Shown: positions 30,804 through 33,261 of the stretch, piece after piece
Numbering within the stretch: position 1 is the stretch's first letter
How the letters are laid out: the number at the start of each line of letters is the position of its first letter
From: Candidatus Dormiibacterota bacterium
GTDB lineage: Bacteria; Chloroflexota; Dormibacteria; Aeolococcales; Aeolococcaceae
Reading direction: 5' to 3'
NCBI GenBank assembly: GCA_036833315.1
Contig: DAITPY010000008.1
Span: 1 to 50,324, forward strand
DNA length: 50,324 nt
The notes under the pieces: generated by a model
Told to the model about the DNA's origin: nothing
What the model saw: the letters and a program-made list of their open reading frames with translations, nothing else
The model's database searches: none
Made by a program: the position numbers and the translations under genes

Positions 30804-32114
30804 TCAGCCAGGCGTGGTGGCGCCGGCAAGCACCCAGGTGGATCCCCCCGGCGCGTCGCGCACCTCCACCCCGGCCTCGACGAGCACGTCGCGCAGCCGG
30901 TCGGCGACCCCGTACTCGCCCGCGGCTCTCATCTGGACTCGCAACTCGAGAATGCCGTCGACCACCGGGGCGATCAGGTCGCGCGGATCGGCGGCGCCGT
31001 TGCGAGCGAGGTCGCCGAGGCGCACCACGTAGCGCCGGAGGGTCTCGCGCGCCCGGTCCTGCTCGTCCGAGTCGAGCGTGTCCGAGGACCAGTCGTGCAT
31101 CTGGGTGTCGATGGCGAGCACCGCGCTCACGGCCGCATCGACATCGCGTGCGGCGAGTGCGCTGTCCGCGGCGGCGGACTGGTCGCCGACCTCCTGCAGG
31201 AAGGGCGACACCCCCGCCGGAGGTGGCGCGAGCTCTGTTGCGAGACTGGCGCTCTCGCCGGCGGCCGTCGCCGCACTGCGCCCGTCGCTGGCTGCAACGC
31301 CGTCCCCGGCGAGATCGCTCACCGGCAGCGTCGTTCCGTGCTCGAACCGCTGGGATCGTCCCCGCCGCCGCAGGGTGAGACCCCCGCGCCCGCGGATCGA
31401 GACGGTCGCAGCGTCGAGATCGAAGATCGCCGCAGTGTGCTCGTCGACGCCGAGGATGTCGACTCCGTCGGGCAGCAGCTCCTCGAGGATGCGCAGGCGG
31501 CGCTCACCCATGTAGCAGTAGCGGGTGTCGTGGGTGCCGCCCTCGGCGTTGTTGTAATGGGGCACGACCGCCGCGCGCAGCCCGGTGGCGCTGAGCAGGT
31601 CGAGCCCCTCGAGCCATCGCGGTTCCTCGCCGACCTTGTAGACCTCGTACACCGGGAGGGCGTACATGCCAATGCCAACCGCGGCCGCGCTGGCGAGGGT
31701 CACGCATCCGCCGTCACGCAGCTTCGCGGCGAGCAGGTCCGGGACGGCGGTGCCGAGCCATTGCCGCAGCGCGTAGCTCGGACTTCCCGGGCCGGCGAAC
31801 ACATAGCGCGCCTCGGCGACTCGCGCGAGCATCGTCTCGTACTCGAGCGCCGTCGCTGCCTCGCGGTTCCGGAACGACGCAACGCTGATCGGAAAGCCGA
31901 CCCGGTCGCGAAAGAACGCGACGGTGCGCTCGCTGATGTCTTCGGCGTTCTCCTGGAACCCGAAGGGCGTATCGAGGAGCACGGCGGGCACCGGTCGTGG
32001 CCCCAGTCTGGTGAGCAGGTCGGCGTGGACCGACACCATCGTCGGTGTCGTCTCCCCCGAGCCCATCACGCAGAGCAGGCGGGGCAGTTGCGCGGCGCCG
32101 GCGATTGCCTCCAT
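30804..32114 (-). CDS. Peptidase S51/cyanophycinase-like hydrolase fused to a CysRS-type C-terminal anticodon-binding domain
   Basis: GSGE, ASAAA (Ser), VPHYNN (His), GVDEHTA; C-terminus LRVQMRAAGEYGVADRLRDVLVEAGVEVRDAPGGSTW. Confidence 0.75.
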   Translation of the reverse strand: MEAIAGAAQLPRLLCVMGSGETTPTMVSVHADLLTRLGPRPVPAVLLDTPFGFQENAEDISERTVAFFRDRVGFPISVASFRNREAATALEYETMLARVAEARYVFAGPGSPSYALRQWLGTAVPDLLAAKLRDGGCVTLASAAAVGIGMYALPVYEVYKVGEEPRWLEGLDLLSATGLRAAVVPHYNNAEGGTHDTRYCYMGERRLRILEELLPDGVDILGVDEHTAAIFDLDAATVSIRGRGGLTLRRRGRSQRFEHGTTLPVSDLAGDGVAASDGRSAATAAGESASLATELAPPPAGVSPFLQEVGDQSAAADSALAARDVDAAVSAVLAIDTQMHDWSSDTLDSDEQDRARETLRRYVVRLGDLARNGAADPRDLIAPVVDGILELRVQMRAAGEYGVADRLRDVLVEAGVEVRDAPGGSTWVLAGATTPG

Positions 32115-32160
32115 GTCTCGATCCTACGGTGTCCCGGCTCGTGACAGGATCACTGCGAAG

Positions 32161-33261
32161 ATGGTGGCGGCCATGGATGCTGCGACGCTCAAGACCGAGC
32201 TCGGAGACGAGGCGCGCCGCCTCGGGTTCGCGGCGTGCGGGGTCACGTCCGCGCGGCCGTTCACCGAGGCGAGAGCCCGCGCGCTCGCGGCCATCGACGC
32301 GGGCCGCATGGACGGGATGGCCTGGTACACGCGTGAGCGGGTCGAGGCATCGGCGGACATCGGTGGCCGCTACCCCTGGGCGCGGTCGATCGTCGCTCTC
32401 GCCTGGCCGTACCGGCCCGCGCCGCCGACGGCGGCGGCCGCCGCCGAGACCGGGCGTGCGACGCGGATCCGCGGCCGCTTCGCCGCCTACGCGTGCATGG
32501 ACGAAGGCGGTGGCGCCGCCGACTATCACGACGTTCTCGCGCGGGGTTGCGACTCGCTGGTCGAATGGCTCCGCGGGCGCGTCGAAGGCGTCACCGCCAA
32601 GCGGTTCGTCGACCATGGATGGGCTCTCGATCGCGCGATCGCAGAGCGAGCGGGCATCGGGTTCGCCGGCAAGCACGCTTCGGTGATCACGATGGAAGCG
32701 GGCTCCTACGTGATGCTCGCGGGCATCGCGCTCTCGGTGGCGTTCCCCGCTGATGCGCCGTCGCGGCGAGGCTGCGGGCAGTGCCGGGCATGCATGCCCG
32801 CGTGTCCGACCGGGGCGATCACGGCTCCGGGCGTCATCGACGCGAGGCGCTGCATCTCCTACCTCACCATCGAGCACCGCGGGGCGATCCCACTCGACTT
32901 GCGGCCTCTCATGGGGACGTGGGCATTCGGCTGCGACCTCTGCCAGGAGGCCTGCCCGATCAACCACCGCCTGGCGCCGCTACCGCTTGATGACACCACG
33001 GCGAGCACCGAGCGAGGCCCGGTGTCCCACCCCGATCTCATCGAGTGTCTCGAGTTGAACGACGAGGCCTTTGCTGCGCGCTTCCGCCGGACTGCCGTCT
33101 GGCGAACGGGTCGCGCCGGTCTGGCGCGCAACTGCGCAATCGCGCTCGGCAATGCCGGCAACCCGGCGGCGCTCCCCGCGCTGCTGCGGACCGCGGACGA
33201 GGACGCTGATCCGGTGGTTCGCGAGGCTGCCGGCTGGGCGATCGCGCGCTTGACGACCTAG
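32161..33261 (+). CDS. queG: Epoxyqueuosine reductase
   Basis: YA...DYHD, ERAGIGFAGK, CGQCRACMPACPTGA, CISYLTIE, GCDLCQEACP, RNCAIALGN. Start 32161 or 32173. Confidence 0.95.
   Translation: MVAAMDAATLKTELGDEARRLGFAACGVTSARPFTEARARALAAIDAGRMDGMAWYTRERVEASADIGGRYPWARSIVALAWPYRPAPPTAAAAAETGRATRIRGRFAAYACMDEGGGAADYHDVLARGCDSLVEWLRGRVEGVTAKRFVDHGWALDRAIAERAGIGFAGKHASVITMEAGSYVMLAGIALSVAFPADAPSRRGCGQCRACMPACPTGAITAPGVIDARRCISYLTIEHRGAIPLDLRPLMGTWAFGCDLCQEACPINHRLAPLPLDDTTASTERGPVSHPDLIECLELNDEAFAARFRRTAVWRTGRAGLARNCAIALGNAGNPAALPALLRTADEDADPVVREAAGWAIARLTT

Follow-up and report, generated by a model that had tools for sequence, protein, structure and literature searches.

A 50,324-nt stretch of DNA from a high-GC Candidatus Dormiibacterota bacterium (contig DAITPY010000008.1 of assembly GCA_036833315.1; hereafter "the window") encodes a protein in which a peptidase-S51 hydrolase domain is joined to the C-terminal module of cysteinyl-tRNA synthetase (CysRS). 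The family to which this fusion protein belongs is uncharacterized, widespread, and mechanistically unusual. In several other phyla, the fusion gene heads a cluster whose other genes resemble those for mycothiol and bacillithiol synthesis, and the family probably works in a pathway that makes a thiol from cysteine and an amino sugar. Our preferred reading, which we hold tentatively and with somewhat less than even confidence, is that the fusion protein is a tRNA-Cys-directed acyl-enzyme catalyst through which cysteine from Cys-tRNA-Cys enters a mycothiol- or bacillithiol-like thiol.

A peptidase-S51 domain joined to a CysRS C-terminal module

The fusion gene and its parts, with the evidence for each in brackets, are as follows.

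30804..32114, minus strand: whole gene, S51-hydrolase/CysRS-C-terminus fusion of 436 aa with an ATG start (open reading frame [ORF] and full-length orthologues at 35–95% identity).
31320..32087, minus strand: residues 10–265, peptidase-S51 (PepE/cyanophycinase-like) catalytic domain (Foldseek and family profile).
31689..31691, minus strand: codon of Ser142, the predicted nucleophile, in ASAAA (conservation, alignment, and model geometry).
31557..31559, minus strand: codon of His186, the predicted general base, in VPHY (conservation and alignment).
31440..31442, minus strand: codon of Glu225, the predicted third triad residue, in DEHT (conservation and alignment).
31629..31655, minus strand: residues 154–162, family-specific insert 1, PVYEVYKVG (invariant positions; not in stand-alone S51 paralogues).
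31512..31550, minus strand: residues 189–201, family-specific insert 2, a flexible loop, NAEGGTHDTRYCY (conservation; not in 6nqc or paralogues).
31215..31319, minus strand: residues 266–300, low-complexity disordered linker whose length varies across the family (low model confidence and gap-rich alignment columns).
30975..31214, minus strand: residues 301–380, helical region, homologous to the bundle of helices before the anticodon domain in CysRS (profile, model, and Foldseek).
30825..30974, minus strand: residues 381–430, alpha/beta domain homologous to the CysRS anticodon-binding domain (PF23493), with R392, R396, Y401, D405, R408, D420, and W427 (profile and residue counts).

Conservation was counted in 86–99 family representatives, which come from several phyla and share 35–60% identity with the target; the family profile comprises 86 representatives. 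An AlphaFold model of the target, for which 53 homologues were supplied, has a predicted local distance difference test score (pLDDT) of 83.7 and a predicted template modelling score (pTM) of 0.72.

The preliminary description of this DNA, made from the sequence alone, had recognized the C-terminal pattern of CysRS in the last ~45 residues. Comparison of the family profile with the PDB bears this out and lengthens the homology to ~130 residues. Profile positions 287–416 match the CysRS chains 8qhp (1.3e-14), 3tqo (1.6e-12), 1li5/1u0b (2.9e-12), and 6ujd (1.9e-11), and nothing else in the PDB is comparable to CysRS for this region. The alignments begin at chain residues 326–387 and reach the C terminus, meaning that they cover the helical bundle besides the alpha/beta anticodon domain. 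When the profile is restricted to the C-terminal part, residues 336–460 of E. coli CysRS are matched with 54.5 bits, and the three best phmmer matches of the target itself in the PDB are CysRS C termini (E 0.019–0.52). Several family members pass the PF23493 threshold (with 34 and 27.6 bits, and also in precomputed PF23493 assignments). In the AlphaFold model, helices occupy residues 304–374, and Foldseek matches 1u0b_B, from the CysRS–tRNA-Cys complex, with probability 1.0 over 116 columns.

The residues that are most strongly kept in this module include R392 (86/86 representatives), R396 (85/86), an aromatic residue at position 401 (84/86), D405 (86/86), R408 (86/86), and W427 (84/86), with D420 being as fixed as R392 and W427. 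In the phmmer alignment, R392, R396, Y401, D405, R408, and W427 correspond to R423, R427, W432, D436, R439, and W458 of E. coli CysRS. Positions 427, 432, 436, and 439 of that enzyme were randomized as anticodon-contacting residues to re-target the pocket, and its Arg427 bonds O6 of G34 (PMC13449415). Because conservation falls on exactly those contact positions, the GCA anticodon would still be the ligand; judged by its sequence, the fusion protein probably binds tRNA-Cys. The Rossmann core of CysRS is missing and, in keeping with what had been observed earlier, there is no H[IVLM]GH or KMSKS motif. The protein would therefore be unable to activate cysteine with ATP.

The N-terminal part had been described as peptidase-E/cyanophycinase-like, with a serine (ASAAA) and a histidine (VPHY) retained. 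Foldseek on the model agrees, with the S51 fold covering residues ~10–265. The best match is 6nqc, a "peptidase from an acI-B1 Actinobacterium" (6.5e-13, TM-target 0.81), followed by 7ffp, 3en0, 7uqw, 6a4r, and 1fy2, all with probability 1.0; dipeptidase E, cyanophycinase (3en0/7uqw), and PepE (1fy2) are thus all placed after 6nqc. The same structure is matched by sequence, with the family profile giving 2.1e-12 over residues 5–256. The retained serine is Ser142, in LASAAAV, which is conserved in 99% of representatives, and the histidine is His186, in VVPHYNN, which is invariant; Glu225 is 97% conserved. In the model, Ser142 sits at a nucleophile elbow, opening the helix 142–146 directly after the strand 136–141. 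Its counterparts in the alignments are the serine of GSSAGAM in stand-alone S51 paralogues and that of SAGA in 6nqc. Likewise, His186 aligns with PHH/PHF, and Glu225 with GIDE.T, of the S51 paralogues and 6nqc. Curated models of the family fall short of their thresholds: the target has no PF03575 match and reaches only 11.9 bits (E 0.12) with the cyanophycinase model TIGR02069, against a cut-off of 126.6, and other family members also score below the S51 threshold (18–20 bits versus 23.9).

Two inserts interrupt the S51 domain. In insert 1 (PVYExYK), P154, E157, Y159, and G162 are invariant, and in insert 2 (NAEGGxHDTRxC), D196 and T197 are invariant, with H195, R198, and C200 conserved in at least 90% of representatives. 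The second insert is predicted to be flexible (pLDDT <50 at residues 194–200). Since both are missing from 6nqc and from the stand-alone S51 paralogues, they co-occur with the tRNA module, and they are candidate contacts for the CCA-Cys end. Between the two domains lies the linker, which has pLDDT <50 at residues 272–299 and corresponds to unconserved, gap-rich columns in the family alignment.

The two-domain architecture is the rule. A HMMER search of 1.84 billion 50%-identity representatives returned 1700 matches at E <= 1e-3, 516 of them at E <= 1e-30, and most are 400–450 aa long and span query residues ~11–429. In longer or odd-length representatives, the only domain matches seen were to CysS_C and weak ones to S51, and no other fused domain was found. 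A scan of one genome per GTDB species gave at least 599 matching stretches. Carriers include Dormibacterota, Acidimicrobiia and other Actinomycetota, Desulfobacterota/Thermodesulfobacteriota, Nitrospirota, Nitrospinota, Chloroflexota, Planctomycetota, Rokubacteriota, and Aminicenantes; the cultured Acidithrix ferrooxidans is one of them. The nearest homologues of the target, at 80–95% identity, are all from metagenome-assembled genomes (MAGs) of Dormibacterota, and its nearest relatives outside that group are from Acidimicrobiia, at 53–59%. The proteins encoded in the gene clusters described below are only 35–38% identical to the target, yet they keep every motif discussed here.

Database names for family members are diverse, i.e., "cyanophycinase-like exopeptidase", "type 1 glutamine amidotransferase family protein", and "CysS/YqeB C-terminal domain-containing protein". 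The last of these names points to E. coli YqeB, which was set aside as a functional clue since it has no match to the C-terminal profile of the family. The Acidithrix ferrooxidans member (UniProt A0A0D8HJ79; WP_052604962.1) is labelled "Cysteine--tRNA ligase" in UniRef, which is an annotation error, given that the protein has no synthetase core; the label may propagate. Our literature search turned up no publication that deals with the family, with 6nqc, or with any fusion of S51 with a synthetase, and nothing relevant on tRNA-dependent thiol synthesis or on mycothiol-like genes in the carrier phyla.

Gene neighbourhoods of the fusion family

The fusion gene heads a co-directional cluster in Desulfobacterota, Nitrospirota, Nitrospinota, Deferrisomatales, and some MAGs labelled as Chloroflexota or Pseudomonadota. 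It is followed by an optional pair, consisting of a ThuA–GFO/IDH/MocA fusion and a second GFO/IDH/MocA gene, and then by genes for a GNAT (~330 aa, Acetyltransf_6/FemAB_like), a GT4 glycosyltransferase (~420 aa), and a PIG-L deacetylase (~231 aa). Spacing is tight: in one Nitrospirota locus (L142), the junctions between the four core genes are a 12-bp gap, a 4-bp overlap, and a 3-bp gap. On the 4.7-Mb contig CP070692.1, independent NCBI gene calls give the same six genes in order. Clustering of the fusion gene with an MshA/BshA-like GT4 and an MshB/BshB-like PIG-L was seen in at least 34 of 80 loci, in phyla other than that of the window, whose own copy is not so placed. The association also holds in the reverse direction. 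A scan of the genome collection with a GNAT-specific motif (YLYNNGYD) returned 120 loci, 99 of which encode the GNAT, 55 of them with enough upstream DNA to be informative; the fusion gene lies upstream of the GNAT gene in 49 of these 55. At the GNAT loci without it, the upstream genes are unrelated and include no substitute cysteine ligase. The whole core cluster is found in Desulfacinum infernum DSM 9756 (L232), and at least its GNAT, GT4, and PIG-L genes in D. hydrothermale DSM 13146 (L242), where the locus ends before the expected place of the fusion gene.

The nature of the partners is informative. For the GT4 protein, the best NCBIfam model is MshA, with 259–300 bits as compared to ~120 bits for the next family, and its best matches in the PDB are to 6kih, which is sucrose-phosphate-synthase-like, and to C. 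glutamicum MshA (3c48/3c4q). The best models for the PIG-L protein are BshB1, BshB2, Mca, and MshB, and the GFO/IDH/MocA oxidoreductases resemble inositol and glycoside dehydrogenases. A sequence search with the GNAT protein found no relatives in the PDB. By fold comparison, a model of it (pLDDT 92.4) is closest to the aminoacyl-tRNA-dependent enzymes Sbb17/Sba18, whose substrate is the amino sugar streptothrisamine, followed by FemA, FemX, and the synthase domain of MprF, while acetyl-CoA-dependent tandem GNATs fit much worse. Gly-tRNA-dependent acylation of streptothrisamine by a Fem-like enzyme has been documented (PMC12945691).

Mycothiol is made by MshA (a GT4), a phosphatase, MshB (a PIG-L protein), the CysRS paralogue MshC, and the acetyltransferase MshD, and bacillithiol is made by BshA, BshB, and BshC (PMC6178380). 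A GT4, a deacetylase, and a cysteine-adding step together follow the logic of both routes, which is what suggests a thiol pathway. The operons contain no MshC- or BshC-like gene, and the fusion protein is their sole component with a predicted cysteine specificity. Because they lack MshC and BshC but encode two proteins that point to tRNA, i.e., the Fem-fold GNAT and the fusion protein, the simplest reading is that cysteine would enter the pathway from Cys-tRNA-Cys.

Accessory genes near the operon, which add candidate phosphatases and a source of inositol phosphate to such a route, encode a myo-inositol-1-phosphate synthase (6 loci), a glyoxalase-II-like MBL-fold protein (20 loci), a HAD phosphatase (20 loci), and a histidine phosphatase (7 loci). 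At many operon loci, a stand-alone canonical S51 paralogue of ~230 aa is encoded directly upstream of the fusion gene (e.g., L134:5092-5778, plus strand; also L105, L111, L112, L116, L123, L130, L135, L147, and L164). It matches PF03575 (1.6e-14) and the cyanophycinase model (1.1e-19). The triad motifs are kept in it, but neither of the two inserts nor the tRNA module is present; the paralogue may be a partner subunit or an amidase acting on conjugates. In three loci (L123:3839-5110, plus strand; L116; L135), a gene for a 423-aa fusion of glutaredoxin and a flavin-type pyridine-nucleotide-disulfide oxidoreductase lies directly upstream of the S51/fusion-gene pair; the encoded protein could reduce the disulfide form of the predicted thiol.

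Outside the GNAT-type operon, the constant neighbour is an alpha/beta-hydrolase gene (Abhydrolase_1/6, S33-like), which is directly upstream of the fusion gene in 35 loci from Acidimicrobiia, Chloroflexota-labelled genomes, and Rokubacteriota; in one of these (L081:7120-8004, plus strand) it overlaps the start of the fusion gene by 4 bp. It is a second conserved partner. In Acidimicrobiia, the same ThuA-GFO and GFO pair as in the operon often lies upstream of the alpha/beta-hydrolase gene, which is then followed by the fusion gene, and the inositol/glycoside theme thus extends towards the closer relatives of the target. Contexts in Dehalococcoidia, Anaerolineae, Aminicenantes, and Syntrophaceae showed nothing recurrent (UDG, a DUF255 thioredoxin-like protein, a thioesterase, UvrB, and PNP were seen).

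Possible transfer of cysteine from Cys-tRNA-Cys, and its alternatives

In our preferred reading, the fusion protein can be seen as having the layout of CysRS, with the Rossmann core exchanged for an S51 domain carrying a Ser-His-Glu triad, and with the order of catalytic domain, helical bundle, and alpha/beta anticodon domain retained. The C-terminal module, whose homology and conserved residues are described above, would hold the GCA anticodon of tRNA-Cys, and the flexible linker of 30–50 residues would let the S51 domain reach the aminoacylated 3′ end. By analogy with cyclodipeptide synthases, Ser142 would attack the cysteinyl ester of Cys-tRNA-Cys, giving a cysteinyl-enzyme. The cysteinyl group would then be accepted by the amine that de-N-acetylation leaves free on a glucosamine glycoside (GlcN-inositol-like), yielding a Cys-GlcN-X thiol. 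In this scheme, tRNA binding, action at the 3′ end, transfer as opposed to hydrolysis, and the product are inferred. The fusion protein would thereby do the job of MshC or BshC without ATP, either alone or together with the adjacent Fem-type GNAT. Whether the fusion protein itself is the cysteinyltransferase is a good deal less certain than the involvement of the family in such a pathway, and we would put the case for it slightly below the case against. We regard the Dormibacterota copy as an orthologue and presume that its partner genes are located elsewhere in the genome.

Several observations weigh against this reading. The evidence for function is computational throughout, and all characterized S51 enzymes that we know of are hydrolases, not transferases. 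The GNAT of the operon is of the textbook kind of aminoacyl-tRNA transferase, so the fusion protein may not be what forms the amide. The GT4 and PIG-L proteins score below NCBI equivalog cut-offs, and the product therefore need not be mycothiol or bacillithiol itself. When the target is compared as a single sequence, its match to PF23493 is weak, at 19.5 bits (E 0.0011) against a cut-off of 23. A GC-rich version of the GNAT motif matched one genome of the collection only, a Deferrisomatales MAG, and none in Dormibacterota or Acidimicrobiia; a close GNAT orthologue is thus not evident in these two lineages, where the motif may differ. Neither the 30 kb upstream of the fusion gene in the window nor the 18 kb downstream encodes any operon partner, and the only neighbours of its near relatives are queG, an M17 aminopeptidase gene, or an Mpo1-like gene. 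Because the partner genes are not in the window, the function of this copy rests on orthology and not on local context.

The tRNA genes near the fusion gene also give no help to this reading. No tRNA-Cys gene was found near it in 120 loci. Instead, the gene for tRNA-Glu(UUC) comes next on the same strand in 23 loci, nearly all of them from Acidimicrobiia or other Actinomycetota MAGs (in the range L046-L079, and L160, L166, and L167). It lies ~25–130 bp past the stop codon of the fusion gene (e.g., L046:7263-7336), or ~1 kb in L076, and tRNA-Asp and tRNA-Phe genes sometimes follow. We considered tRNA-Glu as a functional clue and rejected it, reading the arrangement as local synteny with a tRNA-Glu/Asp/Phe cluster.

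Five other functions were considered, the first of which shifts the chemistry to the neighbouring enzyme. The Fem-type GNAT would transfer cysteine, while the fusion protein would provide tRNA-Cys specificity in trans and its S51 domain would hydrolyse mis-acylated tRNA or a wrong product. The similarity of the GNAT fold to the aminoacyl-tRNA transferases Sbb17/Sba18, FemA/X, and MprF, the tight spacing of the two adjacent genes together with their 49/55 association, and the hydrolytic nature of known S51 enzymes all fit such a division of labour. However, no GNAT gene is detectable beside the fusion gene in Dormibacterota, Acidimicrobiia, Aminicenantes, and Dehalococcoidia, the high-GC genomes of the first two gave no match to the GNAT motif (with the proviso on the motif given above), and we know of no Fem-type enzyme that needs an anticodon-reading partner. 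We consider this adaptor and proofreading role unlikely.

Distinctly unlikely, in our view, is that the protein is a tRNA-Cys-gated amidase, in which the S51 domain would cleave the amide between Cys and GlcN, either in the thiol or, as Mca and Bca do, in S-conjugates formed from it, and the CysRS-derived module would couple release from the reservoir to the demand for cysteine. In PepE and cyanophycinase, cleavage follows an amino acid that is N-terminal or modified on its side chain, a canonical S51 paralogue often adjoins the fusion gene, the ThuA-GFO/GFO pairs that accompany it in Acidimicrobiia and Desulfobacterota could be catabolic, and mycothiol serves as a cysteine reservoir (PMC6178380). 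Nevertheless, an anticodon-binding module alone cannot sense whether the tRNA is charged, another enzyme of the operon would have to add the cysteine, and the co-occurrence of two invariant inserts with the tRNA module suggests that the catalytic domain touches tRNA directly.

The preliminary description had favoured a tRNA-directed hydrolase, for example an editing or deacylating factor for tRNA-Cys. Its structural premise stands, since a hydrolase triad is indeed joined to a true homologue of the CysRS C terminus with the anticodon-contact residues kept, which makes a tRNA-Cys-directed enzyme the natural reading, but the link to queG on which it also drew does not (see below), and the operon favours a role in thiol synthesis over one in editing. 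In its stricter form, this proposal makes the protein a free-standing quality-control factor of translation that deacylates mis-charged or unwanted aminoacyl-tRNA-Cys, apart from thiol synthesis. Besides the triad and the tRNA-Cys anticodon module, it is consistent with the fusion gene standing alone in the lineage of the window, as trans-editing factors often do. However, the fold is unrelated to those of YbaK/ProX, AlaX, and DTD, CysRS is not known to us to need editing, and neither the patchy phyletic spread nor the strong linkage to glycosyltransferase, deacetylase, and GNAT genes would be expected of a translation factor. We regard such a role as improbable.

It is highly improbable that the protein is an ordinary S51 peptidase, with its CysRS-like region serving as a structural or oligomerization appendage that has no tRNA role. 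This would suit the database name "cyanophycinase-like exopeptidase" and the occurrence of M17 aminopeptidase, alpha/beta-hydrolase, and ClpS genes as neighbours in some lineages. However, the residues that contact the anticodon do not vary between phyla even where overall identity is 35%, and this speaks for a ligand having been retained; moreover, no cyanophycin synthetase was seen in any gene context examined, and the PF03575 and cyanophycinase thresholds are not reached.

The remaining proposal comes from the immediate surroundings of the gene in the window, which include the following.

32115..32160, no strand: divergent 46-bp spacer between the fusion gene and queG, outside the functional unit (start-codon positions).
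32161..33261, plus strand: queG (epoxyqueuosine reductase), a neighbour through lineage-specific synteny only (TIGR00276, 1.6e-86).

The length of the shared intergenic region, put at ~46 bp in the preliminary description, is 46 bp if queG starts at ATG 32161, as is most likely, or 58 bp if it starts at ATG 32173; the QueG model matches only from residue 95 of the longest ORF. That ORF begins at GTG 31924, and its extension (31924..32160, plus strand) would overlap the start of the fusion gene by 191 bp. An enzyme acting on an anticodon modification had also been put forward. The adjacency is confined to close Dormibacterota relatives, at 77% identity or more. In more distant members of the phylum, an inserted M17 leucyl aminopeptidase gene directly precedes the fusion gene, on its strand, and queG is 0.5–1.7 kb away or further (deeper-branching loci L043, L045, L050-L052, L054, and L056, e.g., L056:1648-3213), and in Acidimicrobiia and all other phyla outside Dormibacterota, queG was not found within 6 kb of the fusion gene. 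The adjacency is thus local Dormibacterota synteny and carries no functional signal. An anticodon-loop modification enzyme coupled to queG, for which the divergent 46-bp spacer would speak, can practically be discounted, given that no co-occurrence with queG was seen across phyla, that the binding domain would already cover the anticodon, and that queuosine sits in GUN-anticodon tRNAs (Asp/Asn/His/Tyr) and not in tRNA-Cys.

On its other side, the fusion gene is convergent with a gene for a 772-aa membrane GAF-GGDEF-EAL protein of cyclic di-GMP turnover (28478..30796, plus strand), with 7 bp between the stop codons; this gene keeps its position in close Dormibacterota relatives. The window contains no cysS. 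Elsewhere, it carries a non-homologous end-joining pair (43758..48704, minus strand) of Ku (286 aa) and a three-domain LigD (939 aa: phosphoesterase, ligase, and primase-polymerase), with an HNH endonuclease gene between them (44664..45185). A stretch of lower GC content (717..7098, minus strand; 0.64–0.68) encodes an 812-aa SMC_N/AAA ATPase and a PIN-domain protein (2766..3332) along with two ORFs of 225 and 424 aa without a Pfam match, and could be a defence or mobile island. Lastly, a 957-aa ORF (11896..14769, minus strand) has a family match only at residues 685–917 (aminotransferase class IV); its long N-terminal part could be a start over-extension or a fusion.

Comparison with known systems and significance

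With CysRS (1li5/1u0b, 8qhp, 3tqo, and 6ujd), the fusion protein shares the C-terminal ~130 residues, the anticodon contacts, and the order of a catalytic domain followed by a tRNA-binding module. It differs in having no Rossmann core and in carrying as its catalytic domain the unrelated S51 fold, attached through a disordered linker. Within the S51 family (PepE, CphB, and 6nqc), the fold is the same and the triad is in equivalent positions, and an N-terminal GSGE motif is common to the fusion protein and 6nqc, with G-G-x-E in the stand-alone paralogues. To this fold, the fusion protein adds the two invariant inserts and a C-terminal tRNA module of ~170 residues, and there are no cyanophycin genes nearby.

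The closest functional parallels are with the cysteine-adding enzymes of glycoside thiols. In other phyla, the fusion gene keeps genomic company like that of MshC and BshC: an MshA-like GT4, a BshB/MshB-like PIG-L, inositol-phosphate synthase, phosphatases, and a thiol-disulfide-reductase-like gene. Both MshC and the fusion protein are built from a piece of CysRS, the catalytic core in the former and the anticodon module in the latter. To our knowledge, MshC is without the anticodon domain of CysRS. MshC is a CysRS homologue, and the mechanism of BshC has been described as unknown (PMC6178380). The addition of cysteine is also the least understood step of bacillithiol synthesis. The fusion protein has no sequence similarity to BshC, and neither Pfam and NCBIfam scans nor a PDB sequence search matched it to any entry named for MshC or BshC. 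Because the anticodon module is kept and the core is lost, any transfer of cysteine by the fusion protein would be ATP-independent and tRNA-dependent. The family might therefore represent a third kind of cysteine-adding enzyme for glycoside thiols, an ATP-independent Cys-tRNA-Cys:aminosugar cysteinyltransferase that defines a tRNA-dependent pathway in Desulfobacterota, Nitrospirota, Nitrospinota, Acidimicrobiia, Dormibacterota, and other phyla, for which we know of no glycoside thiol and came across none in our literature search; a proposal of this breadth is doubtful at present.

Three further groups of enzymes act on aminoacyl-tRNA. Fem-type transferases (FemX/FemA, MprF, and Sbb17/Sba18/Orf11) have the same chemistry as proposed here, i.e., passage of an amino acid from aminoacyl-tRNA to an amine (of an amino sugar in the case of Sbb17 and Orf11), and in many phyla the gene beside the fusion gene specifies a protein of their fold. 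However, theirs is the GNAT fold and not S51, and, unlike the proposed mechanism, they are not known to use a covalent serine intermediate; we know of no Fem enzyme reported with a synthetase-type anticodon-binding domain. In cyclodipeptide synthases, a serine nucleophile takes the aminoacyl group from aminoacyl-tRNA to form a covalent aminoacyl-enzyme, which provides a precedent for our proposal. Those enzymes differ in deriving from the catalytic domain of class-Ic synthetases, in having no anticodon-binding domain, and in making diketopiperazines. Finally, trans-editing deacylases (YbaK/ProXp, AlaX, and DTD) hydrolyse at the 3′ end of aminoacyl-tRNA, which is one possible activity of the fusion protein. 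They have other folds and are not known to carry such a synthetase anticodon domain or to occur in glycoside-thiol operons, and no trans-editing fold appears among the 50 Foldseek matches listed for the fusion protein or among its PDB sequence matches.

Low-molecular-weight thiols set the redox chemistry of the cell, and we found no report of a glycoside-type thiol for most of the phyla that carry the fusion gene. If the family uses Cys-tRNA-Cys, a new thiol would be predicted in sulfate reducers, Nitrospirota, freshwater and soil Acidimicrobiia, and Dormibacterota, which are environmentally dominant groups. Cultured organisms, i.e., Desulfacinum infernum DSM 9756, D. hydrothermale DSM 13146, and Acidithrix ferrooxidans, make the idea directly testable. 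Such use of Cys-tRNA-Cys would add a new enzyme class to the short list of aminoacyl-tRNA users outside translation. CysRS would then have been split in two complementary ways, with its catalytic core in MshC and its anticodon reader in the fusion family.

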